A stretch of 60,631 nucleotides of DNA. Origin: Candidatus Cacconaster equifaecalis (GTDB lineage: Bacteria; Bacteroidota; Bacteroidia; Bacteroidales; UBA932). Below the pieces are notes generated by a model. It was given only the letters and a program-made list of their open reading frames with translations. It was not told where the DNA came from and did not search any database. Shown here one piece after another: positions 4,058-34,608 of this stretch (the stretch's first letter is position 1; every line of letters begins with the position of its first letter). Location of the stretch: positions 1 through 60,631 of the forward strand of contig JAGHVE010000070.1 in assembly GCA_018064445.1 (NCBI GenBank), read 5' to 3'. A program made the position numbers and the translations under genes.

Positions 4058-5359
4058 TTAGTAGACGGTCACGGATTTAAGCATCGGCTTTGCGAATGCA
4101 TCCGTGACGGTCACCCTGATTTTCGATGCGTTGACCGGGGATGAGAACTGTAACATACGCTTGTGGCCTACCGTCGTACCGGATGCCACCTGTTGCCAGT
4201 TGTCACCGACAAGTGCTTCAACCGTGAATGCCTTGATTTTCTGACCGTACTTTATCTCTTCCTGGAGTACGATGCACTTTGAAGGTTCCTTTACTTTCAG
4301 GACGGCTTTCCGGGACTTGCCCGTGCAACTTGCAAGGGGCTTTGCGAAATAGGCGTCTCTGGCAGCCTTGAATTCCATCAGACGGACAGAATCGGCGTAG
4401 GGGATGAGCCCTCGCTGGTCCGGCGTCACATTGAGAATCAGATTGCTGCCCCGTCCCACCGAGCTGAACCATATTTCCATCAGTTCGTCCAGGCTCTTCA
4501 GGGTGGATTCGTTTGTTGTGGTATAGAACCAGTCGGCACGGATGGGGACGTCAACCTCTCCCGGAATCCACTCGGCTCCGTCACTCTGGCCGGTGTTCAG
4601 AATCTCCTGCGACGGGGCCTGCTTGCCGGGTGCGAAGCCTTCCACGTCAAGACGGCACCAGTTCGTCTCGCCGGCGTAGCCGCTTTCATTGCCAATCCAT
4701 CTGCAGCCGGGGCCTACGTCGCTGAAAATCACGGCGTGCGGGCTGTTGTCATACACGGCTTTATGGAAGAGGGGCCAGTCATAGTCCGGAATGTCGGCAC
4801 CTCCGTTGGCACCGTCGAACCACTGCTCGAAGAAGGGACCGTAATTCTTGTGCACTTCCTCGATTGTCCCTGCAAAAATCCGGTTGTACTCCTCCGTTCC
4901 GTATGCGGGGTGGTTTCTGTCCCAGGGGGAGATATAGACTCCCATAGGGAAATCGTATTTGTCGCAGGCATCGCGCAGCTCTTTCACCACGTCACCCTTG
5001 CCGTCACGCCAGGCACTCTGGGCGACCGTATGGGTGCTGTATTTGCTGGGCCACAGACAGAATCCGTCGTGGTGTTTCGCCGTGAGGATTATGCCCTTCA
5101 TTCCGGCTTCCTTTGCCGTCCGGACCCACTGCCCGCAGTCGAGTTCCGTGGGATTGAAGATGTCCGGGTTTTCATTGCCGAGACCCCATTGGAGTCCGGA
5201 GAAGGTGTTCGGTCCGAAATGACAGAACATATAATATTCCATATCGGCCCAGGCGAGCTGGTCGTCTGTCGGCAGCGGGCCGTAAGTCTTTTCCGTGCAG
5301 GATGTGACGGTCAAGGTGCTGAATACGGCCAACGCCGCCAATAATTTTTTATGTTTCAT
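4058..5359 (-). CDS. GH29 alpha-L-fucosidase lipoprotein with a C-terminal F5/8 type C-like domain
   Basis: 433 aa. It has a lipoprotein signal (TLTVTSC) and the GH29 core motifs FGPNTFSG, GMKGIILTAKHHDGFCLWPSKYS and YISPWDRN. The C-terminal ~100 aa look like a beta-sandwich domain. Confidence 0.9.
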   Translation of the reverse strand: MKHKKLLAALAVFSTLTVTSCTEKTYGPLPTDDQLAWADMEYYMFCHFGPNTFSGLQWGLGNENPDIFNPTELDCGQWVRTAKEAGMKGIILTAKHHDGFCLWPSKYSTHTVAQSAWRDGKGDVVKELRDACDKYDFPMGVYISPWDRNHPAYGTEEYNRIFAGTIEEVHKNYGPFFEQWFDGANGGADIPDYDWPLFHKAVYDNSPHAVIFSDVGPGCRWIGNESGYAGETNWCRLDVEGFAPGKQAPSQEILNTGQSDGAEWIPGEVDVPIRADWFYTTTNESTLKSLDELMEIWFSSVGRGSNLILNVTPDQRGLIPYADSVRLMEFKAARDAYFAKPLASCTGKSRKAVLKVKEPSKCIVLQEEIKYGQKIKAFTVEALVGDNWQQVASGTTVGHKRMLQFSSPVNASKIRVTVTDAFAKPMLKSVTVY

Positions 5360-5366
5360 ATTGTTG

Positions 5367-6095
5367 TCAGTATATAAGATTGAAGGTCAGGGCGGCGAAA
5401 GCGGCTCCCAGGAGCGGGCCCACAACCGGAATCCAGGCATATCCCCAGCCGCAGGAAACCTTTTCCCTGCGTGAGACAAGAGAGAAAAGGCATCGGGGCG
5501 GGAAGTCCCTGGCTGGGTTGATGGCATATCCGGTGGTGCTGCCCAGAGACATACCTATCGACATTATCAGCATCGTCACGGGGAATGCCCCTGACGCGCC
5601 GAGACCGGTTGCGGCTGTGTTCTCGGGCAGAGAGAAGGCCATTATGCAGAATACCAGAAGCCAGGAGGCGAGGAACTCGCAGAACAGATTCCGGCAATTG
5701 TTCGGGATTGCAGGCATCGTGCAGAATGTTCCCAGCCTGACATTGCTGTCAGGGGTGGCATCATAATGATCCTTGTAGAAGACATAGACGAGAGCGGCGC
5801 CTGTGAAACCGCCGAGCAGTTGTGCAATGACGTATGGAAGAACCGCGTTCCAGGCGAACTTGCCGGCGATGGCAAGACCGACGGTCAGGGCGGGGTTGAG
5901 ATGAGCCCCGGAGTAGGGACCTGCGATGAAGACGCCGCACATGACGGCGAATCCCCATCCGAGAGTAATCACGACCCATCCGCCACCGTGTCCCTTGGTT
6001 TTTTCAAGGGAATTTGCAGCGCATACGCCGTCACCGAGCAGTACCAGGACCAAAGTCCCGAGAAACTCGAAAAAACATTTCATCAATAGTGACAT
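5367..6095 (-). CDS. glpF: MIP-family glycerol uptake facilitator (aquaglyceroporin)
   Basis: Two NPA boxes are present (HLNPALT and INPARDF). I trimmed the ORF-track start (6215) to the ATG at 6095 (MSLLMKCFFEFLGT) because the longer form overlaps the glpK 3' end; an alternative ATG lies at 6083. Confidence 0.9.
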   Translation of the reverse strand: MSLLMKCFFEFLGTLVLVLLGDGVCAANSLEKTKGHGGGWVVITLGWGFAVMCGVFIAGPYSGAHLNPALTVGLAIAGKFAWNAVLPYVIAQLLGGFTGAALVYVFYKDHYDATPDSNVRLGTFCTMPAIPNNCRNLFCEFLASWLLVFCIMAFSLPENTAATGLGASGAFPVTMLIMSIGMSLGSTTGYAINPARDFPPRCLFSLVSRREKVSCGWGYAWIPVVGPLLGAAFAALTFNLIY

Positions 6096-6112
6096 ATCTG
6101 TAAAGGTATAGG

Positions 6113-7591
6113 TTATTTCGTTAGAGTTCTTCTGACTGCATCGTGCCAGGCTTCTTTCGCTTCTGCGATTTTCTCCGCCGGAGCTTTCGGAGTGAACACG
6201 CGGTCGGTCTGCCACTGTTTCCTCTCTTCCTCAAGCCCGCTCCAGAAGCCGACGGCGATTCCGGCCAGATATGCGGCGCCAAGAGCGGTTGTTTCCGTCA
6301 CTCTGGGGCGTATCACGTCAACTCCGAGGAGGTCGGACTGGAACTGCATCAGCAGATTGTTCCGGGATGCGCCGCCGTCCACTTTCAATTCCTTCAGGTC
6401 GATTCCGGCATCCTTTCTCATAGCCTCGACGATGTCCATCGTCTGGAACGCGATGCCTTCAAGAGCCGCCCTTGCTATGTGGGCAGCAGTCGTTCCACGG
6501 GTCAGACCGACAATGGTCCCTTTTGCGTACTGGTCCCAATAGGGGGCACCGAGACCTGTCAGGGCGGGCACGAAGCAGACTCCGGCGGAATCTTCCACGC
6601 TGGCTGCAAGTGCCTCTATTTCGGATGAGAACCGGATGATTCCCAGACCGTCACGCAGCCATTGCACAACGCTTCCTGCAACGAAAATGCTGCCTTCGAG
6701 GGCATAGTTCACGGTATCTCCAATCTTCCAGGCGACTGTTGTCAGCAGATTGTTCCTGGAGACAACCGGTTTTGTGCCTGTATTCATCAGCAGGAAGCAT
6801 CCTGTCCCGTAAGTGTTTTTCACCATTCCGCTTTCAGTGCACATCTGCCCGAACAGGGCGGACTGCTGGTCTCCGGCTATTCCGGCGATGGGAATCTCTC
6901 CGCCCAGAAGGGAGGTGGTGCCGTAGATTTCGCTTGACGAACAAACCCGGGGAAGCATCGATTCGGGAATCCCGAAGAGGTCGAGCAACTCCTTGTCCCA
7001 TTCGAGGCTCTTGATATTGAACAGCATAGTCCTGGAGGCATTGGTCACGTCGGTGACGTGGACCTTTCCGCCTGTGAGGTTCCATATCAGCCAGCTGTCA
7101 ACGGTTCCGAAACGGAGCTCGCCATTCCCGGCTTTCCGCTTCGCTCCCGGCACGTTTTCCAGAATCCATCTGATTTTCGAGGCGCTGAAATAAGCGTCGA
7201 TAATCAATCCTGTCTTTTCACGTATTCTGTCGGTGTATCCGGCGGCTTTCAGTCCGTCACAATATTCCGAGGTGCGGCGGTCCTGCCATACGATGGCGTT
7301 ATATACCGGGTTGCCGGTTGCGGCATCCCATACGACCGTGGTCTCCCTCTGATTGGTGATTCCGATTGCGGCAATCTCTGCCGAAGTGGCTCCAAGGCCG
7401 GTGACAGCCTCTTTGAGTACCGAAAGTTCCGATGACCAGATGTCCATCGGGTTGTGCTCGACCCAGCCCGGTTTCGGGAAATGCTGGGTGAATTCCTTCT
7501 GGCAAACGGAAACCGGATTGCCGTTGTGGTCGAAGACGATTGCCCTGGAACTGCTTGTTCCCTGGTCGATGGCAAGAATGTATCTTTTCAT
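6113..7591 (-). CDS. glpK: Glycerol kinase
   Basis: 492-aa FGGY-family kinase with the typical GlpK N-terminus [18 protein letters not shown], plus [10 protein letters not shown] and [10 protein letters not shown] motifs. Confidence 0.97.
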
Positions 7592-7677: not shown

Positions 7678-10600
7678 ATGAAACGTATTGTTCTGACTCT
7701 GATTGCGGCTGTTTCGGCCCTGACATCTTTTGCATCAAATGCTTCGGGAGACATTACCCCGCTGTGGCTCCGTGACGTGATGATATCGCCTGACGGGACG
7801 AAGATAGCTTTCTGCTACAAAGGTGACATCTGGACGGTCCCGGCGGCAGGTGGCCGGGCGCAGCGCCTGACCGCTCAGGAGAGTTATGAAGCCAATCCTG
7901 TCTGGAGTCCGGACGGTTCCGGAATCGCTTTCGCAAGCGACCGTTACGGCAGATATGACATATTCGTGATGTCTTCCGAAGGGGGAAGCGCGACACGTCT
8001 GACTTTCAATTCGGCTGCGGAGATACCCTCCGCTTTCACACCTGACGGCAGCAAGGTGCTTTTCAGCGCATCGATACAGGATCCTGCCGAAAGTGCATTG
8101 TTCCCCTCTGCCGCAATGACTGAACTGTATGCGGTTCCCGTAGCAGGAGGAAAGGTGGAACAGATTCTGGGGACCCCTGCGGAAATGGTCTGCTGGAGTC
8201 CTGACGGGAAGTTCTTCCTCTATCAGGACCGCAAGGGCGGGGAAGACGAGTGGCGCAAGCACCACACATCTTCCATTACCCGCGACATCTGGCGCTATGA
8301 CGTCAAGTCACGCAAACACACAAATCTTACAAACCGTCCCGGTGAGGACCGGAATCCCGTCCTGTCCTCCGACGGCAAGTCAGCATATATCCTCAGTGAA
8401 GCCGAAGGCGGTTCCATCAACGTCTGGTCGATGCCTCTCGACGGCAACAAGGCGGGCTGGAAGCAGATAACCTCTTTCGACACGCACCCGGTCCGTTTCC
8501 TTTCCCGCGGGGGCAATACTCTCTGTTTCACCTGGGACGGTGAAATATACACAATGGTTCCCGGACAGAAGCCTTCGAAGGTCGCCATCAGCCTGACGCT
8601 CGACGAGGAAAACATACCCGAGAAAAGTCACGTCACTTCCGGGGCGACAAGTTCCTCCGTAAGTCCTGACGGCAAGCATGTTGCCTTCATTGTACGCGGA
8701 GACGTCTTCGTGACCTCCGTCGAATACAAGACCACGAAGAGAGTGACCTGCACTGCGGCTGCGGAGAGGGGAGTGGATTTCGGAAAGGACAACCGCAGCA
8801 TTGCCTATTCCAGCGAACGTGACGGTATTTCTCAACTTTATATTGCGCGGATAGGACGTGAATCGGACCCGGATTTTCCCAATGCGACGGTCATTGAAGA
8901 GGAATGGGTCCTTCCCGATCTGAACGTCGAGAGGTCATACCCTTCCTTCTCTCCCGACGGAAAGGAACTTGCATTCATCGAGAACCGCTCCCATCTGAAG
9001 GTGGTGGACCTTGCCACCAGGGCGGTGCGGGAAGTGACCGACGGCTCCTTCTGGTACAGCAGGTCCGGCGGATTCTCATACGAGTGGAGTCCTGACGGGA
9101 AATGGTTCGTCATCGAATATACCGCAAACGGACACGAGCCCTACAACGATTTCGGCATCGTCAGCGCTCAGGGCGGAGAGATAACCAATATTACAGAGAG
9201 CGGCTATATGTCCGACGGTGCACGCTGGGTGATGGACGGCAACGCCATCCTGTTCAGAAGTGAAATCTACGGTATGAGGGCGCACGCCTCCTGGGGTTCT
9301 CAGGACGATATTTTCCTCTGTTTCCTCAATCAGGACGCATACGACAGATACCGTCTCTCCGAGGAGGATTACGCACTCCGCAAGGAGATGGAAAAGGACA
9401 AAAAGAAAGATAAGACTGATACCCTGTCAATCAAAGTGGAACCGGATGGCATAAGGGACAGGATTGTCCGCCTCACTCCGCACAGCGGCAACCTCGGCGA
9501 CGCAATACTGAGCAAGGACGGCGGTACCCTGTGGTATCTTGCCTCATTTGAAGGAGGAATGGACCTCTGGAAGACGGACCTTCGCAAGAAAGAGACAAAA
9601 CTTGTATCGAAGGGCGCCGGAAGCGGTCGTTTCGCCACAGACGGGAAAGGCAAAACCATATTCCTGCTCGGCAGCGGTTTCAAGAAACTTGACGGAGAAA
9701 AGTTCAAGAACATCAGTTTCGATGCCGAACTGAAAGTGGATCACGCCGCGGAACGCGAATATATGTTCAATTATGTCTGCAGGGAGGAGCAGCAGAGATT
9801 CTATACCGCCGATATGCACGGAGTTGACTGGGATGCAATGACGCAGGCATACCGAAAGTTCCTGCCGCATATCTCCAACAATTACGATTTTGCGGAACTT
9901 CTCAGCGAGTGGCTTGGTGAGCTCAACGTATCCCATACGGGAGGCCGTTACTATCCCACCGGTGCCGTTGAAAACACGGCATCCCTCGGACTGCTCTTTG
10001 ACCTTGGATGGAAAGGTGCGGGACTCAAGGTTGAGGAAGTGGTGAAAGGCGGGCCGTTCGACCACGCGGATCTCGGCCTCAAAGCCGGTGACGTGATAAA
10101 GAGCATAAACGGCGTTGAAGTCACCCCCGAACAGGACGAAAGCATTCTTCTGGCCGGACAGGCTGGCAGGAAGACTCTCGTCACCTGTACCGACGGCAGG
10201 GAGTATGTGGTTCTGCCGGTAAGCAGTTCAAAGATGAACGACCTGCTCTATGACCGTTGGGTGAAACAGCGTGCGGCGGATGTCGAGAAGTGGTCGAAGG
10301 GCCGTCTGGGATATGTGCATATCCGCTCTATGAACGACGGCAGTTTCCGCCCTATGTATTCCGATGTTCTGGGCAAATACAACAAGTGTGAAGGCATCGT
10401 GATTGACACCCGTTTCAACGGTGGAGGAAGGATGCACGAAGACATCGAAATCCTGTTCAGCGGACAGAAATATCTCACGCAGGTCATCAGGGGTCGGGAG
10501 AGTTGCGATATGCCGAGCCGCAGATGGAACAAGCCGAGCATTATGATTCAGTGCGAGGCCAACTACAGCAATGCGCACGGAACTCCCTGGGTTTACAGCC

Positions 10601-10857
10601 ATCAGCACATCGGCAAGCTTGTCGGTGCGCCTGTCCCGGGCACTATGACAAGTGTCAACTGGGTGACAATGCAGGATCCGAGCCTCATCTTCGGAATCCC
10701 TGTCATCGGTTACAGAACTGCCGAAGGAAACTATCTTGAAGGGACCCAGCTTGAACCGGACATACTGATATTGAACGCACCGGAAACGATAGTCAAGGGA
10801 GAGGACTCCCAGCTGCGCGCCGCAGTGGAGGAACTTCTGAAAGAGGTGTCAGATTGA
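7678..10857 (+). CDS. Tricorn-like S41 protease (beta-propeller, PDZ and C-terminal peptidase domains)
   Basis: 1059 aa with a signal peptide. It has repeated TolB/WD40-like 'SPDG' blades (ISPDGTKIAF, WSPDGSGIAF, FTPDGSKVLF, VSPDGKHVAF, FSPDGKELAF, WSPDGKWF). A PDZ-like segment (GLKAGDVIKSINGVEV) and an S41-type C-terminal domain (IVIDTRFNGGG) follow. Confidence 0.85.
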   Translation: MKRIVLTLIAAVSALTSFASNASGDITPLWLRDVMISPDGTKIAFCYKGDIWTVPAAGGRAQRLTAQESYEANPVWSPDGSGIAFASDRYGRYDIFVMSSEGGSATRLTFNSAAEIPSAFTPDGSKVLFSASIQDPAESALFPSAAMTELYAVPVAGGKVEQILGTPAEMVCWSPDGKFFLYQDRKGGEDEWRKHHTSSITRDIWRYDVKSRKHTNLTNRPGEDRNPVLSSDGKSAYILSEAEGGSINVWSMPLDGNKAGWKQITSFDTHPVRFLSRGGNTLCFTWDGEIYTMVPGQKPSKVAISLTLDEENIPEKSHVTSGATSSSVSPDGKHVAFIVRGDVFVTSVEYKTTKRVTCTAAAERGVDFGKDNRSIAYSSERDGISQLYIARIGRESDPDFPNATVIEEEWVLPDLNVERSYPSFSPDGKELAFIENRSHLKVVDLATRAVREVTDGSFWYSRSGGFSYEWSPDGKWFVIEYTANGHEPYNDFGIVSAQGGEITNITESGYMSDGARWVMDGNAILFRSEIYGMRAHASWGSQDDIFLCFLNQDAYDRYRLSEEDYALRKEMEKDKKKDKTDTLSIKVEPDGIRDRIVRLTPHSGNLGDAILSKDGGTLWYLASFEGGMDLWKTDLRKKETKLVSKGAGSGRFATDGKGKTIFLLGSGFKKLDGEKFKNISFDAELKVDHAAEREYMFNYVCREEQQRFYTADMHGVDWDAMTQAYRKFLPHISNNYDFAELLSEWLGELNVSHTGGRYYPTGAVENTASLGLLFDLGWKGAGLKVEEVVKGGPFDHADLGLKAGDVIKSINGVEVTPEQDESILLAGQAGRKTLVTCTDGREYVVLPVSSSKMNDLLYDRWVKQRAADVEKWSKGRLGYVHIRSMNDGSFRPMYSDVLGKYNKCEGIVIDTRFNGGGRMHEDIEILFSGQKYLTQVIRGRESCDMPSRRWNKPSIMIQCEANYSNAHGTPWVYSHQHIGKLVGAPVPGTMTSVNWVTMQDPSLIFGIPVIGYRTAEGNYLEGTQLEPDILILNAPETIVKGEDSQLRAAVEELLKEVSD

Positions 10858-11382
10858 CCGGACAGTTGCCACAATATCTTTGATGGCTTTCGCATAGTCG
10901 GTCGATTCTATCTTCACGACGGCGTCTGCGCAGGAGGCGTAACGTTTCCTGCGGGTATCGTACAGGGCGCGAATCTCTTCTTCGCTCTTTTCCTGCACGA
11001 GGGGGCGGTTTGCATTGCCCAGTTCGGAAAGAATGATGTCGAAAGAGGTGTCAAGCCAGATTATGAATGTCCCATTACCGTGCAGAATCTCCATATTGCG
11101 GTCCGAAAGCACGGTCCCGCCGCCGAGGGCGACAATACAATTCCTGCTTTCCGACTCTTTCAGTACGGACTCCAGAATCCCGGATTCAATCTCACGGAAG
11201 AGCGATTCTCCTCCACGTGTGAATATGGCCGGTATCGGGCCGTAGGATTCTTCGATTCTTCCGTCAAGATCCACGAATTGCCATCCGAGAATCTCAGAGG
11301 CGGCCCTGCCGAAGGTGGATTTTCCGCACGCCATGAATCCGGTCAGGGCGACAGTTCTGTCAGAAGAGGGTCGGTTCTCCAT
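10849..11382 (-). CDS. aroK: Shikimate kinase
   Basis: It has a Walker A motif (LTGFMACGKST) and shikimate-kinase length and pattern. I chose the ATG at 11382 (MENRPSS...); ATGs at 11397 and 11409 are alternatives. The 5' end overlaps the parC stop and the 3' end overlaps the tricorn gene by 9 nt. Confidence 0.85.
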   Translation of the reverse strand: MENRPSSDRTVALTGFMACGKSTFGRAASEILGWQFVDLDGRIEESYGPIPAIFTRGGESLFREIESGILESVLKESESRNCIVALGGGTVLSDRNMEILHGNGTFIIWLDTSFDIILSELGNANRPLVQEKSEEEIRALYDTRRKRYASCADAVVKIESTDYAKAIKDIVATVRSI

Positions 11383-14089
11383 TGTCGTCCCAAACATAAG
11401 GTGTGACATCTCCCTCCTCCGAATTTCGGTCTTCCATTTCGGGTTCACGGCTCTCCTGAGGTTGAGCCTCCTTTTCAAGCGGTTCGATGAACTTCACCTC
11501 TGCGATTGTGAAGGATGACACTTTCTTTCCTTTGGCCCGGAAACTCTTCTGTCCGATGAACTGTTCCACGTCAATCGTTTCGGGCTCCCGTCCGGCATTC
11601 TTCCCTCCGAAAGTCACATACAATTGGGGGAAGGCGTCGCTGCTGAGTTCAAGCAGACGCGAACCGTTGTCTTCGCTGATGAAACTCTGTGGCACTCCTC
11701 CGTTTGGCTCGAAAGAGAACCTCTTTATATAGTGAGCCTTTGCGGATGAATCATAATACAATGCGGCGAACGTCTTTTCGGAATCCAACTTCTCTATCAG
11801 GATGATGTCTCCCTGGTAGTGGTTGGCAAGGTCGAACGAGGTCGTGTAGAACGTACCGTTGCTGCAGACCACCAGAATGTTGTCACCGTCGTTGAACTCT
11901 CCCAGGTAGAGGCCGTGTTCCGTGTCGGTCAGGCGGTTGATGTCGCTGTCGAACCATATCTGCTTCCCCGAAAGGGTGGAGACGCCCTTGCTCTTGAGAG
12001 ATATCCTTGATATGATGTTTCTGTTGGTGACAAGATTGCCTCTCGAAGCTCTGCCTTTGATTGCCAGATTCGCGAAGTTGTATTCTTCGGAGAGTTTCTT
12101 GAGCTTTGGACGCGGCTTGTAGTTGATGCGGAGAGTTTCCGCTTCACCGTTGCTGTTGGCGGTGAACCACAGCACCGCCGAGCCGTCGGTTCCCTGTGTG
12201 AGGTCATATTCCTTGTCGCGGGTGATGCCCGTTATCGAGAAGCGCTTCGCATAGTAGGCGCCTCCGTTCTTGCCGTCGCGGTAGATTGCGTTGTAAACGG
12301 TCCTCTCGTCACCTTTGGTGAATACCTGCGCGTGGATGATGTCTTTCCCGACAAATGCTTTGTCACGGATTTTGGTTACCATATAGCGTCCGTTCTTGCG
12401 GAAGATCACCACGTCCGCTATGTCGGAGCAGTCGCAGATGAATTGGGCCCCGTCGATTTTCTTCTGGTCAGTGCCGATGAAACCGTCAGCGAAATTGGCG
12501 TACAGCTTGGCGTTGAGGGTGACGACCTTCTCTGCCTGGATGTTTTCGAATGCCGTGATTTCCGTCTTGCGGGGGAAAGACTGCCCGTATTTTCTCTTGA
12601 GAGTCTGGAAATATCTCACAGTGAAGTCTGTAAGGTGTTCCAGATTGTTGCGGACTTCGTCGATGTCCGCCTCGATTCCCCGTATCTTCTCGTCAGCAGC
12701 CTTGATGTCGAAACGGGAGATTTTTCTGACAGGTTTCTCGACAAGTTTCTCTATGTCCCCGTGGGTTATCGGCCTGCGGAGAAGGCTCTGATATTGCAGC
12801 ATCCCTGCCTCGACGTCGCGTAACTGCTCCTCCCAGCTTGCGGCCTCGTTTTCGAGGATACGGTACACCTTCTTTTCGAAGAATATCTTTTCAAGGGAAC
12901 TGAAATGCCAGTCGCCCTCAAGTTCCTCCAGTATGATTTTCAGTTCCTGTTCGAAGAGGTCACGAGTATGTCCGGCATTGAATTTCAGGATTTCGTCAAC
13001 TCCCAAGAAATGGGGCTTGCGGTCCTTGATCACGCAGGCGTTGGGAGAGATGGACACTTCGCAGTTGGTGAAGGCGTAAAGCGCGTCGATTGTCTTGTCC
13101 GGAGAGATGTCGTTCTGAAGAGTGATGTTGATTTCCACGCTGTCGGAGGACATATCGTCAATCTTCTTGATTTTGATTTTGCCCTTGTCGTTGGCCTTGA
13201 GGATGGAATCTATCAGGCTTTCAGTCGTCTGCCCGTATGGCAATTCGGTGATGCAGAGGGTCTTCCTGTCCGTTTTGAGGATTCTGGCCCTTACTTTGAC
13301 CTTTCCGCCGCGCAGACCGTTGTTGTATTTGGAGCAGTCCATCAGACCTCCTGTGGGGAAGTCGGGATACAGGTCGAAAGGCTTGCCCCGAAGCGCGGCT
13401 ATGCAGGCATCCATAAGTTCGTTGAAATTGTGCGGAAGCACCTTGACTGCAAGGCCCACGGCAATGCCTTCAGTGCCCTGGGCAAGCAGGAGCGGGAATT
13501 TCATCGGCAGCACGACCGGTTCCTTGTTCGTTCCGTCGTAAGAGGGGACCCACTCCGTGATTTTCTTGTTGAAGGCGACCTCGAGCGCGAACTTGCTCAG
13601 CCTGGCCTCGATGTAGCGGGATGCGGCCGCACTGTCACCGGTGAAGATATTACCCCAGTTCCCCTGACAGTCAATCAGATAATCCTTCTGCCCCAATCCT
13701 ACGAGAGCATCTTTGATGGATGCGTCACCGTGAGGGTGATATTTCATAGTGTCACCGACTATTCCGGCGACCTTGTGGTAGTGGCCGTCGTCCACCTTCT
13801 GCATCGCGTGGAGAATGCGCCGCTGCACGGGCTTAAGGCCATCTTCAATCTGAGGTACGGCTCTGTCGAGGATGACGTATGAGGCATAGTCAAGGAACCA
13901 GTCCTTGTACATTCCGGAGAGTTTGTAGCGGTTTTCGCCGTCAGCCACCAACCGCTCATATCTGTCTTCGTCCTCGCTGTCAAGCTCTTCGTTTTCCAAT
14001 ACCTCGCACTGGTCATCCGAATCTTCGGAATCTGTGCTCTGCTGCTCGTCAAAAATCTCGTCGTCCAGGATTTCGTCGTCTTTGCTCAT
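11360..14089 (-). CDS. parC: DNA topoisomerase IV subunit A (type IIA topoisomerase A subunit)
   Basis: 909 aa with YASYVILDRAVPQIEDGLKPVQRRILHAM, KYHPHGD and the active-site region AAASRYIEARL. The choice of ParC over GyrA follows the Bacteroidota pattern and is inferred. Confidence 0.85.
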   Translation of the reverse strand: MSKDDEILDDEIFDEQQSTDSEDSDDQCEVLENEELDSEDEDRYERLVADGENRYKLSGMYKDWFLDYASYVILDRAVPQIEDGLKPVQRRILHAMQKVDDGHYHKVAGIVGDTMKYHPHGDASIKDALVGLGQKDYLIDCQGNWGNIFTGDSAAASRYIEARLSKFALEVAFNKKITEWVPSYDGTNKEPVVLPMKFPLLLAQGTEGIAVGLAVKVLPHNFNELMDACIAALRGKPFDLYPDFPTGGLMDCSKYNNGLRGGKVKVRARILKTDRKTLCITELPYGQTTESLIDSILKANDKGKIKIKKIDDMSSDSVEINITLQNDISPDKTIDALYAFTNCEVSISPNACVIKDRKPHFLGVDEILKFNAGHTRDLFEQELKIILEELEGDWHFSSLEKIFFEKKVYRILENEAASWEEQLRDVEAGMLQYQSLLRRPITHGDIEKLVEKPVRKISRFDIKAADEKIRGIEADIDEVRNNLEHLTDFTVRYFQTLKRKYGQSFPRKTEITAFENIQAEKVVTLNAKLYANFADGFIGTDQKKIDGAQFICDCSDIADVVIFRKNGRYMVTKIRDKAFVGKDIIHAQVFTKGDERTVYNAIYRDGKNGGAYYAKRFSITGITRDKEYDLTQGTDGSAVLWFTANSNGEAETLRINYKPRPKLKKLSEEYNFANLAIKGRASRGNLVTNRNIISRISLKSKGVSTLSGKQIWFDSDINRLTDTEHGLYLGEFNDGDNILVVCSNGTFYTTSFDLANHYQGDIILIEKLDSEKTFAALYYDSSAKAHYIKRFSFEPNGGVPQSFISEDNGSRLLELSSDAFPQLYVTFGGKNAGREPETIDVEQFIGQKSFRAKGKKVSSFTIAEVKFIEPLEKEAQPQESREPEMEDRNSEEGDVTPYVWDDNGEPTLF

Positions 14090-19803: not shown

Positions 19804-20549
19804 TGTGGACTGACAGGACGGAGATACTTGTCGGCAGGGAGGGTCTGGACCTTCTCGGAAAGGCCTCCGTGGCTGTCGTGGGTCTCGGTGGAGTTGGAGC
19901 CGTAGCCGCTGAGATGATTGTCCGCGCCGGAGTGAGTCACGTCACCGTCCTGGACTGCGACACCGTCAGCGAGACGAATCGGAACCGCCAGATAATCGCG
20001 ATGGTCTCAACTGTGGGCAGACGGAAAAGCGAAGTGGTGGCAGAACGGCTTATGGATATAAATCCGGAACTGGACCTGGATGTCAGAGACTGCTATCTCA
20101 CGGCGGAGAATGTCGGCGGGATTTTCCCTGCCGGGAAAAGTCCTGACTTCATAATCGACGCAATAGACACGCTCGCCCCGAAGCTGGCACTGATAAAGCA
20201 CTGCGTGGACAACCGTATCGGACTCGTCAGCTCGATGGGCTCAGGAGCCAAATATGACGTGACAAAAATCCGCATTGCGGACATTTCCAAGTCGTTCAAC
20301 TGCCCGCTGGCCTACATAGTCAGGAAGAAGTTGCGCCATATGGGCATCAGCAAAGGCTTTCCCGTCGTCTTCAGCGAAGAACTGCCGGAGACTGACGCAA
20401 TCGTTGAAATGACCCCTCAGGAGCAGGCCGAGGTGAGCAACAAGAAGTCCCAGGTGGGGACAATAAGTTATCTGCCCGCCGCTTTCGGCTGCGCCTGCGC
20501 CCAGGCTGCGATTACACACATACTGAAAAACAAACCCGCAATACTATGA
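19803..20549 (+). CDS. tcdA: tRNA threonylcarbamoyladenosine dehydratase (ThiF/HesA-family E1-like)
   Basis: 248 aa with a ThiF-type Rossmann motif (VAVVGLGGVGAVAAEMIVRAGV...LDCDTVSETNRNRQ). The start overlaps the mazG stop (TAATG). Confidence 0.82.
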   Translation: MWTDRTEILVGREGLDLLGKASVAVVGLGGVGAVAAEMIVRAGVSHVTVLDCDTVSETNRNRQIIAMVSTVGRRKSEVVAERLMDINPELDLDVRDCYLTAENVGGIFPAGKSPDFIIDAIDTLAPKLALIKHCVDNRIGLVSSMGSGAKYDVTKIRIADISKSFNCPLAYIVRKKLRHMGISKGFPVVFSEELPETDAIVEMTPQEQAEVSNKKSQVGTISYLPAAFGCACAQAAITHILKNKPAIL

Positions 20550-21460
20550 AACACTTTTCAACACTCGCAATCATCTTCACTCTGGCAGCACTGCTTATGG
20601 CAGGATGCACATCAAAAACCACCGCACCGCTCAAAGCCCTTGTAGTCAGCGGTCAGAACAATCACAACTGGCCAGTGAGCCATCAGGCGCTCAAACTCAT
20701 TCTCGACAACTCGGGTCTTTTCTCAACCGATATCGCCCTGACTCCCGAAGCGGGTGGCGATATGAGTACGTTCGCTCCCGATTTCAGCCTTTACGACGTG
20801 GTCGTACTGGATTACAACGGTGACAACTGGAGCGAGGAGACCAACGCCGCTTTCCTTGAATATGTTCAGAACGGCGGTGGAATCGTCATCTACCACGCAG
20901 CGGACAATGCTTTCACGGAGTGGGAGGAATTCAACAAAATCATAGCCCTCGGAGGATGGGGCGGCCGCACGGAGAAGGACGGGCCCTACTGCTATCTGAA
21001 AGACGGACAACTCTACAAGGATTTCGAGACGCCCGGCCCCGGTGGAAACCACGGACAGCAGAGAGAGTACGCTATGCACTGCCGCAATGCGGAACATCCT
21101 GTAACAAAGGGGCTTCCTGACGGCTGGCTTCACGCCCAGGACGAACTTTACGATTGCCTGAGAGGACCCGCGAACATCAAGGACCTGCTCTACACCGGAA
21201 CTTCCGATGCGGCTACCGGAGGGTCAGGCCGTGAGGAGCCCCTCGTATTCACGGTGGATTACGGCAATGCAAGAATTTTCCATCTGGCAATCGGACACGC
21301 CGGTGAAAATCTGGAAAACAACCCTGCAATGCAGTGCGTAGGCTTCCAGACTCTTCTTCTCCGTGGCGCCGAATGGGCCGCAACCGGCAAGGTCACACAG
21401 AAAGTACCTGAAGGTTTCCCCGGAAGCGGAGCCACAAGCCTCCGTCCCGAATACAAGTAA
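20546..21460 (+). CDS. ThuA-domain (trehalose-utilisation-like) lipoprotein
   Basis: 304 aa with a lipoprotein signal (LLMAGC). It shows a ThuA-like pattern: KALVVSGQNNHNW...YDVVVLDYNGDNW...GGGIVIYHAADNAF. The ATG overlaps the tcdA stop (ATGA). Confidence 0.75.
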   Translation: MKHFSTLAIIFTLAALLMAGCTSKTTAPLKALVVSGQNNHNWPVSHQALKLILDNSGLFSTDIALTPEAGGDMSTFAPDFSLYDVVVLDYNGDNWSEETNAAFLEYVQNGGGIVIYHAADNAFTEWEEFNKIIALGGWGGRTEKDGPYCYLKDGQLYKDFETPGPGGNHGQQREYAMHCRNAEHPVTKGLPDGWLHAQDELYDCLRGPANIKDLLYTGTSDAATGGSGREEPLVFTVDYGNARIFHLAIGHAGENLENNPAMQCVGFQTLLLRGAEWAATGKVTQKVPEGFPGSGATSLRPEYK

Positions 21461-24778: not shown

Positions 24779-24786
24779 TATATTTG
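24779..24786 (+). promoter_or_regulatory. Candidate -7 box (TATATTTG) for prfA
   Basis: Exact TAnnTTTG match, 19 nt upstream of the ATG at 24806. Confidence 0.45.
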
Positions 24787-30612: not shown

Positions 30613-30723
30613 ATTACAATACGCTGACTTATGGACAATATTCAAACCAACCGCAAAACGGCTGACAATTTGTCACATTGTTGTCATAGCGAAAATTAAT
30701 TTGTCGAAAAGGGAAATAAGTGT

Positions 30724-30731
30724 TAAATTTG
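30724..30731 (+). promoter_or_regulatory. Candidate -7 box (TAAATTTG) for the cytochrome-FGE / oxidoreductase / TIM-barrel operon
   Basis: Exact TAnnTTTG match, 7 nt upstream of the ATG at 30739. This implies a leaderless or near-leaderless mRNA. Confidence 0.45.
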
Positions 30732-30738
30732 TGAGGAT

Positions 30739-32271
30739 ATGACAAGCGAGACGAAGCATAAACTTATCATAGCCTTATCCTGTGGCTTCGCCGGCGTGGC
30801 ATTGATGCTTGGCATCGACTATGCGGCCGGCAGAACATCTACCAACGACTATTGTGCATCCTGTCACGTTCACCCGGACGCCGACAAAAGCTGGAAACAG
30901 AGTTCCCACTTCCTGAACTCTTCAGGCACGATGGCCGACTGTGCGGAGTGTCACCTCCCTCCCAAGGACAATTACTTCCATCATATGGCCGCAAAGGCAG
31001 GCACGGGTATGAAAGACCTGATGTCCTATATGTTCAAGGATACCGAAAAGATTGACTGGGACTCCAGGAAGGAGCTTGAATATGCCACCGGAATCGTTTA
31101 CAACGAGTCCTGCCTGAAGTGTCATCACGACCTGTATCCGGAAGGAATCAGCGATGACGGCATCTCCGCCCACCTCTATTATGACGAACACGCCGAGGAA
31201 CTGGATCTGCAGTGCATAAACTGCCATCTGGACGTGGGGCACTACAATCCCGGCTATACCCATCAGCGTCTGAGCGGAATTGTCCGCGACATCGTGGGCG
31301 AGTCGAGGACAAAATATTCCGAGGCTACGGAAGTGACATCCTTCAGCTCTTTCGAGGAACATATTCCCGGTACTGCCGTAAGTCTGAAGATGGTAGCCGT
31401 CCCCGGCGGCAGCTTCACAATGGGCAGTCCGAAGAACGAACCTTTGCGCAATGAAAATGAGGGTCCGCAGCGTCAGGTGACTGTGTCGGACTTTTTTATG
31501 GGCGAGGTTGAGGTGACCTGGGACCAGTACTGGGCGTTCTACAACGAAACGATGTCCGAGGGACGTACTCCTCCCGAGAAGATATATCAGCACAACTCCA
31601 CTCCCGGAATCGATGCCGTCAGCGGTCCGACCCCTCCTTTCGGAAACCCGGATCAGGGCTGGGGGATGAACAGCCGTCCAGCGCTCACTATGACACATTA
31701 TGCCGCTGAGACGTTCTGCCAGTGGCTCAGCCTCAAGACAGGCAAGCATTACAGGCTTCCGACAGAAGCCGAATGGGAATATGCCGCAAGAGGCGGTTCC
31801 AGTACCCCATACTTCTTTGACGGAAATCCGAAGAAATTCTCGTCAAGAGGATTTCTCCGCAATGTCTTCAAGCCCGATACGGCTATGATAAACAGATATG
31901 TCATCTATGCTCTGAACAGCCGGAACCGTACTCAGATTCCTGATATGGTAGCCCCCAACCCGCTGGGATTGAAGAATATGCTCGGCAATGTGATGGAGTA
32001 TTGCTCCGACTGGTACGCCGAGGATGCATACAGTTCGCTGAAGGATGGTGCGGTTGACCCCAAGGGTCCTGCCGAAGGAACGGAACACGTTGTCCGCGGA
32101 GGTCTCTATAACAGCGATGCTGCGGAGGTGCGCAGCGCTTCCCGTGCCGCAACGAATCACGATGCGTGGCTGAAGACCGACCCGCAGAAACCCAAGAGCA
32201 TCTGGTGGTACTCGGACATCAAGGGAATAGGATTCCGCGTAGTGTGTGACTTGCCTGAAACGATTAAATAA
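30739..32271 (+). CDS. Membrane-anchored tetraheme NapC/NirT/NrfH-type cytochrome c fused to an FGE/SUMF1-fold (sulfatase-modifying-factor-like) domain
   Basis: 510 aa with an N-terminal TM helix ([20 protein letters not shown]). Four CxxCH motifs are present: CASCH at 30853-30867, CAECH at 30940-30954, CLKCH at 31111-31125 and CINCH at 31213-31227. The C-terminal ~300 aa carry FGE-sulfatase-domain motifs ([11 protein letters not shown]...[51 protein letters not shown]...GFRVV). Confidence 0.85.
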
Positions 32272-32281
32272 CCATAATATT

Positions 32282-33622
32282 ATGAGCAGCAAAAATTTAA
32301 ACCGCAGAGAGTTTCTCTCAATGTCAGCAGTCATCGGAGCCGGCGCAGTAGTGGCTCCTTCAATCCTTTCATCCTGTGCCAAGGGAAGCGGCAACACGCC
32401 TCTCCGCCCTGCAGGCTCCTATTACGTTCCCGAACTTCCCGACAAGGCTGATGCCGGACGCGAACTGAAAGTGGGCGTCATCGGATGCGGTGGCCGTGCC
32501 ACGGGTGCAACCATCAACCTCCTCGATGCAGCTGACGGCATCACCGTCTATGCTGCAGGTGACGTTTTTGCAGACAGAATCGCCAGTTTCCAGGAAACTA
32601 TCGGTGAAAGGGGACAGCACGTCGATCCCGAGCGCGTGTTCGTAGGCTTCGATGCATACAAGAAAGTCATCGACAGCGGAGTTGATATGGTCATCATCGC
32701 AACGCCTCCCGTATTCCGTCCCGAGCATTTCAAATATGCTACTGAAAAGGGCGTTCACTCTTTCCTTGAGAAACCTATCGCAGTGGATGCAAAGGGATAC
32801 CGTACCATTATGGCCACAGCGAAGCAGGCTGAAGCAAAGGGACTCAGCGTGGTTACCGGAACTCAGCGTCATCACCAGCGTCCTTACGTAGAAGCTTTCA
32901 AGCTCATTCAGGAAGGCGCAATCGGTGAGATTACCGGCGGTAACGTATATTGGAACCAGGGTATGCTCTGGTATCGTGAACGCGAAAAGGGCTGGAGCGA
33001 TATGGAATGGATGATCCGTGACTGGGTCAACTGGAAATGGCTCTCCGGAGACCATATCGTCGAGCAGCACGTCCACAATATCGACGTGTTCCTCTGGATG
33101 GCCGGAATGCACCCCGTGAAGGCTACTGCATTCGGTGCAAGACACCGCCGCAAGACAGGTGACCAGTACGACCAGTTCAGCGTCGATTTCGAATTCGAGA
33201 ACGGCATTCATCTTCACAGCATGTGCCGCCAGATAGACGGAACAAGCACCAACGTTTCAGAGTTCATTCAGGGTACGAAGGGAAGCTGGAACAGCGACGA
33301 GCACGTCATCAAGGACCTCAAGGGCAATGTGCTCTGGAAATATGAAGATGATCCCAAGTTCTCACAGTTCGACCCTTATGTTCTTGAGCACGTCGACTGG
33401 GTCAACCATATCAGAAGAGGTGAAGCCCACGTTGAGGCCGGTGATACCGGAATCTCAAGCCTTGCAGGCGTGATGGGCCGTGAAGCCGCATATACCGGAC
33501 AGACCGTCGAGTGGGACATCATCAGCAACTCAGACCTCGACTATATGCCGGCCAAACTCGAACTCGGTGCAATGCCTATGTCTGAGTACAAGGTGGCTGT
33601 TCCCGGTTCCGCAGAAGAATAG
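32282..33622 (+). CDS. Tat-signal Gfo/Idh/MocA-family NAD(P)-dependent oxidoreductase lipoprotein (GH109-like / glycoside 3-dehydrogenase-like)
   Basis: I trimmed the start to the ATG at 32282 (MSSKNLNRREFLSMSAVIGAGAVVAPSILSSC), which gives a twin-arginine motif plus a lipobox Cys. It has a Rossmann motif (KVGVIGCGGRATGA) and the family pattern EKPIAVD...GEI. It starts 10 nt after the upstream stop. Confidence 0.88.
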   Translation: MSSKNLNRREFLSMSAVIGAGAVVAPSILSSCAKGSGNTPLRPAGSYYVPELPDKADAGRELKVGVIGCGGRATGATINLLDAADGITVYAAGDVFADRIASFQETIGERGQHVDPERVFVGFDAYKKVIDSGVDMVIIATPPVFRPEHFKYATEKGVHSFLEKPIAVDAKGYRTIMATAKQAEAKGLSVVTGTQRHHQRPYVEAFKLIQEGAIGEITGGNVYWNQGMLWYREREKGWSDMEWMIRDWVNWKWLSGDHIVEQHVHNIDVFLWMAGMHPVKATAFGARHRRKTGDQYDQFSVDFEFENGIHLHSMCRQIDGTSTNVSEFIQGTKGSWNSDEHVIKDLKGNVLWKYEDDPKFSQFDPYVLEHVDWVNHIRRGEAHVEAGDTGISSLAGVMGREAAYTGQTVEWDIISNSDLDYMPAKLELGAMPMSEYKVAVPGSAEE

Positions 33623-33645
33623 AAACGTTGAAAACTCTACTTGCA

Positions 33646-34560
33646 ATGGACAGAAGAAATTTCATAAAGACATCTTCCTTCGGACTGACGGCGGCGGCCG
33701 TTGCCGGTAGCGGTGTGGTTTCGCTTTCATCCTGCTGCGGCAAGAGCGCTCCCGTGAAGAAGGACGTATCACTCAATATATCATTCCAGGAAGGGATTGC
33801 CCCGGGCGAGAGCCTCAATGAGAAGTTCGATTATATGGAGGAACTCGGTGTCGTAGGATTCGAACCCGGCGGAAGGGACCTTGCAAAACGTGTTCAGGAA
33901 ATACAGGATGCTCTCAAGGGACGCAATATCAAAGTTTCTGCAATCTGTGCCGGTTTCGACGGTTTCATCCTTGCGGAGGATCCGGCTGAGAAGACCGCAT
34001 TCGACACTACGATGCGTGAGATAATCGCGGCGGCCGGACAGCTCGGTTCCACCGGTGTCATAATGGTTCCCGCATTCAACGGCCAGCTCCCCTGCAAGCC
34101 CCATACCCGCGAGACCCGCGAGTTCCTTGTGGATGAACTTGCAAAGTTGGGTGAGTATGCTCTTAAATGCGGTACTACAGTGATTCTGGAGCCTCTCAAC
34201 CGTGAGGAGTGCCATTATCTGCGTCTTGTATCCGACGCTGCGGCAATCTGCCGTGACGTAAATTGCGAGGGCGTGAAATGTATGGGTGACTTCTGGCATA
34301 TGAAGGAGGAGACATCCGACTATGCAGCCTTCATAGCGGCGGGTACGAAGTATCTGCAGCACGTCCATATGGCAAGCCGTGGCAACCGCTGTATGCCGGG
34401 TGAGGACGGTGACAAGGACAATTACGTTGACGGATTCCGCGCACTCAAGGAGATAGGCTATGACAAATATGTCAGCTTCGAGTGCGGCTGCAAGGGTGAG
34501 CGTGAAATAAGTGTCCCTGCGGCAGTCGAGCTTATCCGTTCACAGTGGGAACAGGCGTAA
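33646..34560 (+). CDS. Tat-signal xylose-isomerase-like TIM-barrel protein (sugar phosphate isomerase/epimerase family) lipoprotein
   Basis: The ATG at 33646 gives MDRRNFIKTSSFGLTAAAVAGSGVVSLSSCC, a twin-arginine motif plus a lipobox. The ORF-track start at 33628 is TTG. AP_endonuc_2-type motifs are present (VILEPLNREE, GDFWHMKEE). Confidence 0.85.
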   Translation: MDRRNFIKTSSFGLTAAAVAGSGVVSLSSCCGKSAPVKKDVSLNISFQEGIAPGESLNEKFDYMEELGVVGFEPGGRDLAKRVQEIQDALKGRNIKVSAICAGFDGFILAEDPAEKTAFDTTMREIIAAAGQLGSTGVIMVPAFNGQLPCKPHTRETREFLVDELAKLGEYALKCGTTVILEPLNREECHYLRLVSDAAAICRDVNCEGVKCMGDFWHMKEETSDYAAFIAAGTKYLQHVHMASRGNRCMPGEDGDKDNYVDGFRALKEIGYDKYVSFECGCKGEREISVPAAVELIRSQWEQA

Positions 34561-34600: not shown

Positions 34601-34608
34601 TACTTTTG
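34601..34608 (+). promoter_or_regulatory. Candidate -7 box (TACTTTTG) for gapA, with a TTTG -33-like element at 34575-34578
   Basis: Exact TAnnTTTG match, 47 nt upstream of the ATG at 34656. An upstream TTTG lies 22 nt before it. Confidence 0.45.

Follow-up and report, generated by a model that had tools for sequence, protein, structure and literature searches.

The 60,631-nucleotide contig JAGHVE010000070.1 of Candidatus Cacconaster equifaecalis (assembly GCA_018064445.1), referred to here as the window, encodes a cassette of three genes on its forward strand at positions 30739-34560. The first gene (g1) encodes a membrane-anchored tetrahaem cytochrome fused to a domain with the fold of the formylglycine-generating enzyme (FGE), the second (g2) an oxidoreductase of the Gfo/Idh/MocA family (GFO) with a twin-arginine translocation (Tat) signal, and the third (g3) a xylose-isomerase-like TIM barrel. 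Comparison across phyla shows that the invariant core of this system is the FGE-like domain together with the g2-type GFO subfamily, and not the cytochrome. The initial annotation of this DNA had treated the FGE-fold domain as a passenger, a view now overturned, as this domain constantly accompanies the GFO, whether haems are present or not. From the gene content, we consider the chances somewhat better than even that g2 is electronically coupled to the quinone pool through g1, with electrons flowing in the oxidative direction. The features on which the argument depends are as follows.

30739..32271, + strand: g1, 510 amino acids, a NapC/NirT tetrahaem cytochrome c with a membrane anchor (residues 1 to about 185), followed by a periplasmic FGE-fold domain (about 205-510), by Pfam match.
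30853..31227, + strand: haem c motifs of g1, CASCH (30853-30867), CAECH (30940-30954), CLKCH (31111-31125) and CINCH (31213-31227), read from the sequence.
31612..31632, + strand: family loop D292-A-V-S-G-P-T298, followed by P-P-F-G, defined by conservation; T298 is a candidate acceptor of flavin mononucleotide (FMN), its flavinylation being putative.
32095..32115, + strand: R-G-G-L-Y-N-S, in which the first catalytic Cys position of FGE is occupied by Ser and no second Cys follows, by alignment to the human and Thermomonospora FGE structures.
32179..32208, + strand: second family signature, D-P-Q-x-P-K-S-x-W-W, near the C-terminus of the FGE-like domain, by alignment.
32282..33622, + strand: g2, a 446-amino-acid Tat-exported and probably lipid-anchored GFO, by Pfam and NCBIfam match, with Rossmann motif GVIGCGGRATGA (32474-32509) and an EKP motif (32768-32776).
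33646..34560, + strand: g3, a 304-amino-acid xylose-isomerase-like TIM barrel with a Tat signal, by Pfam match, with an E/D/H/E tetrad in EPLNR (34189-34203), GDFWHM (34285-34302), HVHMAS (34360-34377) and SFEC (34474-34485).

The two halves of g1 are each assigned by strong profile matches, judged, like all Pfam scores given here, against the curated gathering cut-off of the family. The N-terminal half matches Cytochrom_NNT (PF03264) at 84.1 bits (cut-off 24.1) over residues 6-171, corresponding to profile positions 6-172 of 174, while residues 217-473 match FGE-sulfatase (PF03781) at 140 bits (cut-off 23.3). A hydrophobic anchor at residues 8-30 precedes four CxxCH motifs, which begin at residues 39, 68, 125 and 159. 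All eight cysteines of these motifs and the first two histidines are at least 99% identical in 80 homologues, and the last two histidines at least 90%. Homologues of g1 number more than 7500 (counted as protein clusters), and both the cytochrome and the FGE domain are present in all 120 of the best listed. Scores against the named NapC/NirT subfamilies are below their cut-offs (NrfH, 65.6 against 134.2 bits; napC_nirT, 46.4 against 310.6; TorC, 57.1 against 478.2), and g1 is, by these profiles, a member of the NapC/NirT family that stands outside the subfamilies NrfH, NapC and TorC.

The FGE-like domain of g1 scores 80 bits against Thermomonospora FGE, 66 bits against the PvdO structure and 96 bits on the PvdO model, and all NCBIfam matches of g1 are far under their cut-offs. 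True FGE activity is ruled out, since both copper-binding catalytic cysteines are missing; the counterpart motif in human FGE reads GGSYMCHRSYC. Two signatures characterize the domain. The first is the loop at D292-T298, with the consensus D-A-[IVLM]-[ST]-[GR]-[AP]-[TS]-x-P-[YFW], in which D and T (or S) are the most constant positions. Among 136 close homologues, 135 read SGPT at this place, and several distant homologues read SGAT or TGAT; the loop has no counterpart in canonical FGE or in FGE domains that lack a GFO neighbour. The second signature is likewise absent from non-family FGE domains. In a 10-sequence alignment of distant members, comprising fusions and haem-free homologues, the D, T and following P of the loop are invariant, as are the D, P, P and WW of the second signature, with its Q and S nearly so.

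These signatures are associated with a neighbouring GFO gene. An exhaustive profile search recovered full-length fusions down to 40-47% identity, and also haem-free FGE-like homologues with signal peptides. As a natural control, 80 metagenome loci with an FGE domain were compared, 37 with both signatures and 36 with neither, at least 1.5 kb of downstream sequence being required. A GFO gene was adjacent in 20 of the 26 both-signature loci with enough downstream sequence, against 0 of 22 signature-less loci (Fisher p = 1.6e-8). Individual contexts outside the Bacteroidales agree: a GFO gene follows the haem-free FGE-like gene in all five that were looked up. In three Gemmataceae-type loci, the order is ApbE (divergent), haem-free FGE-like protein and GFO; a further haem-free locus has the order FGE-like, ApbE, GFO; and in one lineage, a divergent ThuA gene is followed by the FGE-like gene and a ThuB-like GFO, with no ApbE. 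In addition, a fusion 47% identical to g1 is followed after 13 nt by an orthologous GFO of 465 amino acids. The GFOs of this fusion, of the Gemmataceae loci and of the FGE-like/ApbE/GFO arrangement possess the g2 motifs, and the Gemmataceae partner is 42% identical to g2 over its full length (299 bits).

The same contexts connect the FGE-like domain with ApbE, the enzyme family that attaches FMN to proteins. An ApbE gene adjoins four of the five haem-free pairs, and the C-terminal part of one lies upstream of the 47% fusion, so that apbE is adjacent in five of the six non-Bacteroidales contexts examined individually. In the metagenome loci, ApbE was adjacent in 9 of 44 with full or partial signatures, against 1 of 36 without (p = 0.02); the lone signature-less locus holds a truncated family member, and its reassignment, to 10 of 45 against 0 of 35, gives p = 0.004. 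The target motif of ApbE is D-x-x-[S/T]-G-A-[S/T], with FMN on the last residue, and Ala-to-Val and Gly-to-Ala substitutions in it retain about 50% of flavinylation (PMC12052999). When 13 ApbE-linked loci were scanned (12 of them with apbE in the DNA examined), the FGE-like loop was the sole flavinylation-like motif in any open reading frame (ORF). The domain is also predicted to be extracytosolic, as it follows the NapC/NirT anchor and periplasmic haems in the fusions, and its haem-free homologues have signal peptides. The main texts of two flavinylation surveys mention neither an FGE/sulfatase domain nor Gfo/Idh/MocA proteins (Meheust 2021, PMC8238504; Huang 2024, PMC11334425), and no FGE-sulfatase entry occurs in portions of their supplements. 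We tentatively suggest, at less than even confidence, that the FGE-like domain of g1 carries covalent FMN at Thr298.

The partner enzyme g2 is a GFO by three Pfam profiles: PF01408 (GFO_IDH_MocA, 42.9 bits; cut-off 24), PF22725 (GFO_IDH_MocA_C3, 46.5; 27) and PF02894 (26; 22.9). Its Rossmann motif GVIGCGGRATGA and its EKP motif are both invariant in 23 homologues. The Tat signal scores above the TIGR01409 cut-off (18.1 against 16.7 bits), and the homologous GFO of another Bacteroidota locus (L104) gives a weak match to a second Tat profile, PF10518 (22.1 against 22.7). A lipobox, LSSC, follows the twin-arginine signal both in g2 (32366-32377) and in g3 (33724-33735), and the corresponding Cys32 of g2 is invariant in the same 23 homologues; g2 and g3 may accordingly be Tat-exported lipoproteins. 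The AlphaFold model of g2 (pLDDT, the predicted local confidence score, 81.8) has only GFO enzymes as its top fold matches, the nearest being inositol, aldose and glucose-fructose oxidoreductases at 16-22% identity, a generic result with no clue to the substrate. No solved GFO scores above 40 bits. The initial annotation had looked to GH109, DgpA and BT_2158-type enzymes as precedents for this protein, none of which found support. Membership of the BT_2158 glycoside 3-dehydrogenase family (NF058561) was rejected at 21 bits against a cut-off of 750, and membership of the DgpA family at 27.4 bits. A GH109- or GH4-type glycosidase has no sequence or fold support: no GH109 chain occurs among 30 PDB matches (E <= 0.001) or the top 50 folds, with no GH109 profile compared directly.

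Within the Bacteroidales, the cassette is conserved as a unit. A scan of one genome per species found at least 578 loci with a relative of g1, of which the best 80 were examined; these span Alistipes, Cryptobacteroides, Rikenellaceae, Muribaculaceae, Bacteroidaceae and other Bacteroidales. Each scan in this work was sampled as its best 80 matches and is not a census. The order g1-g2-g3 is kept in all 80 loci (identity 54-98%), six of which are truncated where the contig ends. The g2 gene directly follows g1 in every case, and g3 comes after g2 wherever the contig continues, with a DUF6016 gene inserted in 26. The ClpB and GAPDH genes that flank the cassette in the window are kept solely in the three closest genomes. 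Linkage of all three genes, the decisive check named in the initial annotation, is thus borne out among variable flanks.

Directly 3' of g3, genes for ResB/CcsB and CcsA, components of system II cytochrome c maturation (ccsBA), are found in 52 of the 80 loci, as at 10545-12556 of locus L004, and on this basis the cytochrome of g1 is very probably a working one. The DUF6016 gene, which encodes a WbuC-like cupin without a signal peptide, occurs mostly in Alistipes (e.g., L004, 9126-9620). When neighbouring ORFs of the 80 loci were clustered, no other family appeared in more than 19, and no SusC/D, glycoside hydrolase or regulator was recurrent. The cassette was for this reason rejected as a polysaccharide or glycan utilisation locus. 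The window contains neither a ResB/CcsA gene nor an ApbE gene, and the cytochrome maturation genes must therefore sit elsewhere in the genome. Among cultured organisms, Phocaeicola abscessus (locus L173) has the full cassette of fusion, GFO and TIM barrel together with ResB and CcsA (10354-12320), and from Parabacteroides distasonis a solved structure represents a close orthologue of the TIM-barrel gene alone (PDB 3kws). The P. abscessus locus also has an extra GFO of 390 amino acids directly upstream on the same strand (5110-6282), apparently without a signal peptide. In Bacteroides thetaiotaomicron, a second ResB/CcsA pair, BT1604-BT1605, lies apart from the nrfHA operon (PMC10434189); the adjoining BT1601-BT1603 are a speculative candidate for a copy of the cassette.

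Accessory genes vary beyond the Bacteroidales, yet by sequence all are from families linked to keto-sugars. Three loci from other Bacteroidota (L095, L096 and L098; e.g., L096, 5977-11454) encode the fusion, a g2-type GFO, a second Tat GFO of the C2/ThuB-like type and ThuA. Another (L104, 5929-9860) encodes the fusion, a g2-type GFO and a Tat TIM barrel so distant from g3 that tblastn gives no match. Among the Gemmataceae loci, a protein of 393-397 amino acids is encoded next to ApbE in L090 (4611-5804, - strand) and L091 (4613-5794, - strand); it has no Pfam match, signal peptide, haem motif or flavinylation motif. An NDH-2-like gene lies slightly beyond it in L091. The partner GFO of L090 (8162-9455) is split into ORFs of 290 and 160 amino acids, by a frameshift or an assembly error.

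A specific electron chain is proposed from several features taken together: the Tat-exported GFO, its invariant periplasmic partner domain, the loop of that domain that resembles a flavinylation motif, the repeated occurrence of apbE, the quinone-interacting NapC/NirT module fused on in Bacteroidota and the accompanying cytochrome maturation genes. The g2 enzyme would be exported in folded form through the Tat pathway, presumably with tightly bound NAD(P), and would form a keto compound by oxidising a secondary hydroxyl group of its substrate, which may be a sugar, a glycoside or a cyclitol. Re-oxidation of the NAD(P)H held by g2 would then fall to the FGE-like domain of g1, and not to a second sugar, this domain acting as a dedicated and co-evolving partner of the g2 subfamily. 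The hydride carrier NAD(P)H seldom reduces haem directly, and a flavin is the usual converter. A flavin is for this reason the likely missing link, as also suggested by the adjacent apbE and the flavinylation-like loop: FMN placed on Thr298 by ApbE would split the two-electron hydride into one-electron steps. From there, electrons would pass through the four haems of the NapC/NirT module to menaquinone, and onward to fumarate reductase or cytochrome bd, while g3 would act on the keto product by isomerisation, epimerisation or elimination. More generally, the FGE fold may have given rise to a new class of electron-transfer protein that is flavinylated by ApbE, docks on nicotinamide-loaded Tat GFOs and re-oxidises their trapped cofactor, with the NapC/NirT fusion of the Bacteroidales making a respiratory donor complex; we regard this wider proposal as plausible, though with rather less than an even chance of being correct.

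Several observations weigh against the oxidative coupling or its flavin step. The loop in the window, DAVSGPT, agrees with the ApbE motif at six of seven positions, with Pro replacing Ala. Exact readings, DAISGAT and DAITGAT, are found in distant members, and complete matches are a minority of the family. In addition, most apbE-adjacent members read [ST]-R-P-T, with Arg in place of the Gly of the motif. No apbE gene adjoins any of the Bacteroidales cassettes, that of the window included, or the fusion in 11 other NapC-fused metagenome loci; in the Bacteroidales, flavinylation would fall to the housekeeping ApbE of Nqr and Rnf. The g1 model from AlphaFold is of poor quality (mean pLDDT 60, and below 50 in both signature segments) and does not place the loop relative to the haems; low values in these segments might be the pattern expected where a cofactor or partner provides the order, which proves nothing. 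The best NCBIfam match of g2, inositol 2-dehydrogenase, reaches 56 bits against a cut-off of 355 and does not identify the substrate. Outside the Bacteroidales, the TIM barrel does not belong to the conserved core, following the GFO in L100, L104 and, weakly, L116 (26% identity). Finally, characterised NapC/NirT proteins, including NapC, NirT, NrfH, CymA and TorC, mostly oxidise quinols, and the opposite direction of electron flow is therefore, by analogy, a real possibility.

In the reverse direction, the same complex would be a menaquinol-dependent periplasmic reductase, in which the GFO reduces a keto or otherwise oxidised compound that the TIM barrel supplies or removes. Profile assignment of g1 to a family of quinol oxidisers is in favour of this alternative. 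However, transfer from menaquinol (about -74 mV) to NAD(P)+ (about -320 mV) would be uphill unless the potential of the bound cofactor were strongly shifted, and cytochrome cM552 of nitrifiers, a NapC/NirT relative, is a quinone reductase, so that family membership by itself does not settle the direction. The reductase is further favoured by the reversibility of GFO enzymes, as the enzyme of the AL/BT pathway also reduces 3-keto-glucose (10.1101/2024.03.25.586180), and by the neighbouring cytochrome c maturation genes, which the cassette shares with nrfHA in B. thetaiotaomicron (PMC10434189), whereas the haem-free homologues of other phyla have no obvious link to quinols. On balance, we judge the reductase unlikely; if it were true, the cassette would represent a new electron sink for respiration or detoxification.

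Another alternative gives the FGE-like domain a role of its own, as a catalyst such as a PvdO-like periplasmic oxidase or as a substrate-binding module, for instance for carbohydrates or peptides. The haems would serve it directly, and the GFO and TIM barrel would take earlier or later steps of a pathway, passing it no electrons. FGE-fold enzymes are chemically varied (FGE, EgtB, OvoA, SenA, PvdO), g1 scores 96 bits on the PvdO model and 66 bits on the PvdO structure, and a ligand pocket could be built from the two segments peculiar to the family. Against this, the copper-binding Cys pair of FGE is missing, no conserved cluster of His, Cys or Met is conspicuous among the invariant columns, and the NCBIfam matches fall far short of their cut-offs. 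A catalytic or binding role of this kind, which we think quite improbable, would also leave the company of apbE and the constant GFO-subfamily partner unexplained. It is very improbable that g2 works alone as a redox-neutral enzyme (GH109, GH4 or NanOx type) that recycles its own NAD, is indifferent to the cytochrome and adjoins it by shared regulation or chance. Many Tat GFOs do work in this way (GFOR, aldose-aldose oxidoreductase, NanOx, BT2158/AL3), and these are among the folds closest to g2. However, the pairing with the FGE-like gene spans phyla, Bacteroidota and Planctomycetota included, and is peculiar to the subfamily that bears the signatures (p = 1.6e-8), the genes are separated by 10-20 nt or overlap, and no GH109 structure was matched at E <= 0.001.

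Oxidative coupling of g2 through g1 has partial precedents, the nearest published system being BT2156-BT2160/AL1-AL5, a pathway of oxidative glycoside cleavage in B. thetaiotaomicron and Alistipes (Liu 2021, PMC8121099; Nasseri preprint, 10.1101/2024.03.25.586180). Both are found in gut Bacteroidales and combine a Tat-exported periplasmic GFO, an apparently non-exchangeable nicotinamide and an adjacent TIM barrel, and keto-sugar chemistry is expected in both. Missing from the cassette, relative to the published system, are a DUF1080 gene, a regulator of the SusR or DUF6377 type and, in the window, a second GFO. The published system in turn has no cytochrome, its cofactor being recycled by 3-keto-glucose, whereas the cassette has a fused cytochrome and adaptor. 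The periplasmic partner that re-oxidises the bound cofactor of the BT2158/AL3 enzymes has been stated to be unknown, with cytochromes named as possible (PMC8121099; bioRxiv 10.1101/2024.03.25.586180). The cassette would offer a concrete answer, for a sister family, to how the non-exchangeable nicotinamide of periplasmic GFOs becomes re-oxidised.

The pairing of a GFO dehydrogenase with a TIM barrel is also seen in YcjS/YcjR of E. coli, a glucoside 3-dehydrogenase and an epimerase. These are cytoplasmic enzymes that use free NAD+, and they differ from the cassette in having no Tat signal, cytochrome or FGE-like partner. With NapC, NirT, NrfH and CymA, which connect the menaquinone pool to periplasmic redox enzymes, g1 shares the N-terminal anchor, the four CxxCH motifs and the full-length PF03264 match; the quinone reduction proposed for g1 would be an unusual direction. 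To our knowledge, no characterised NapC/NirT member is fused to an FGE fold or partnered with a nicotinamide-dependent dehydrogenase. The literature searched likewise yielded no description of a NapC/NirT-FGE fusion or of an FGE-like/GFO pair.

Membrane-bound flavoprotein-cytochrome c sugar dehydrogenases are enzymes of aerobes, with an FAD-dependent catalytic subunit of the GMC type and a different cytochrome subunit. Members such as glucoside 3-dehydrogenase, gluconate 2-dehydrogenase and fructose dehydrogenase, as well as LacABC/ThuAB (cited in PMC8121099), resemble the proposed chain in combining periplasmic sugar oxidation, a flavin, a multihaem cytochrome c and the quinone pool. In contrast, the catalytic subunit of the cassette is a nicotinamide-dependent GFO and its hosts are fumarate-respiring anaerobes, so that the parts are wholly different. 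Liu et al. argued that B. thetaiotaomicron probably cannot run cytochrome c-dependent dehydrogenases, given how limited its electron transport chain is (PMC8121099). The ApbE-flavinylated proteins NqrC, RnfG, NosR, PceC, DUF2271 and DUF3570 (PMC8238504; PMC11334425) resemble the FGE-like domain in periplasmic placement, in the motif-like loop, in the apbE gene adjacent in many homologous loci and in the proposed bridging of two- and one-electron transfer. They differ in that the domain of g1 has an FGE/C-type-lectin-like fold and not the FMN-bind fold, and in that its loop mostly has Pro in place of Ala, and often Arg in place of Gly. Finally, FGE/SUMF1 and PvdO share the fold with g1 (PF03781), which differs from them in the absence of the Cys pair, in its two extra signatures and in having a GFO as partner, rather than a sulfatase or a pyoverdine gene.

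If oxidative coupling is confirmed, the cassette would add a new electron donor branch to the menaquinone/fumarate respiration of major gut anaerobes. Periplasmic oxidation combined with cytoplasmic fumarate reduction could make a charge-separating redox loop, by which strict or nanaerobic gut anaerobes would gain energy from sugar oxidation outside the cytoplasm. The FGE fold and the substrate repertoire of ApbE would each be extended by a new function; an adaptor of this fold with a covalent flavin would, if confirmed, be a component of a new kind. The annotation of thousands of genes now named 'formylglycine-generating enzyme' or 'SUMF1/EgtB/PvdO family nonheme iron enzyme' would also have to be revised.

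The third gene of the Bacteroidales cassette, g3, matches AP_endonuc_2 (PF01261) at 106.6 bits (cut-off 31.1). Its metal-ligand motifs are kept in 73 homologues and align with those of YcjR. The N-terminus DRRNFIK is a twin-arginine sequence by inspection, with no Tat profile match reported. The closest structure, PDB 3kws from P. distasonis ('putative sugar isomerase'), scores 414 bits at about 72% identity and is an uncharacterised true orthologue; a literature search returned nothing relevant on this entry. The closest characterised relative is YcjR, a 3-keto-D-glucoside 4-epimerase (6wn6), which matches over its full length at 97 bits, well under the 414 bits of 3kws. The best NCBIfam match, IolO, reaches 83 bits against 300. 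By these scores, g3 is a relative of YcjR and not its equivalog. A kinship of g3 with DgpB/C or with lyases, which had been suggested earlier, could not be upheld, as no chain named DgpB, DgpC or lyase was found in the PDB up to E = 10. The keto-sugar context suggested along with it fared better, given that YcjR acts on 3-keto-glucosides and that in other Bacteroidota ThuB-like GFO and ThuA genes take the place of the TIM barrel or are added to it.

Within the window, the three genes follow a single candidate promoter.

30700..30731, + strand: candidate Bacteroides-type promoter, with TTTG at 30700-30703, a 20-nt spacer and TAAATTTG at 30724-30731; its function is predicted from the sequence.

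The sequence TAAATTTG at 30724 fits the Bacteroides -7 consensus TAnnTTTG. It ends 7 nt ahead of the ATG of g1, and given this spacing the transcript would have little or no leader. The box, in the form TAAnTTTG, and the upstream TTTG are kept in the three closest genomes (L001-L003). The organism is close to a horse-gut metagenome-assembled genome, 'Candidatus Cacconaster scatequi', with 95-98% protein identity. No second forward-strand TAnnTTTG box occurs within 30732-34560, the next one lying at 34601 ahead of the GAPDH gene, and no forward-strand terminator-like site lies between the cassette genes. The intergenic gaps are 10 nt (g1/g2) and 23 nt (g2/g3), and the ATG start of g2 is internal to a longer ORF with a GTG start. 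Together, these features suggest co-transcription of g1, g2 and g3. The gene coordinates and gaps agree with those of the initial annotation, which had also placed a single promoter box before the cassette. Over the whole window, TAnnTTTG occurs 32 times, against 18.1 +/- 3.9 expected, and most boxes lie just 5' of gene starts, as at 24779, 34601, 50463 and 54095.

The cassette is flanked in the window by ClpB, on the opposite strand, and GAPDH, and the remainder of the window encodes housekeeping genes along with scattered GH36, GH29, GH95, ThuA-like and XylAB genes. The glycosidases and ThuA-like gene that had earlier been listed as surroundings of the cassette are therefore present, but they are not conserved neighbours of it across the 80 Bacteroidales loci. 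The ThuA-like gene (20546-21460, + strand; 86 bits) lies about 9 kb upstream, between genes of the ThiF family and for an ADP-ribosylglycohydrolase; ThuA is thus unlinked to the cassette in the window, yet linked to it in other phyla. At the start of the window, a forward-strand ORF (2498-4048) joins a Lactamase_B_3 domain (residues 174-312) to a C-terminal Plug domain of TonB-dependent receptors (residues 419-510), and is either an odd architecture or a mis-joined ORF.

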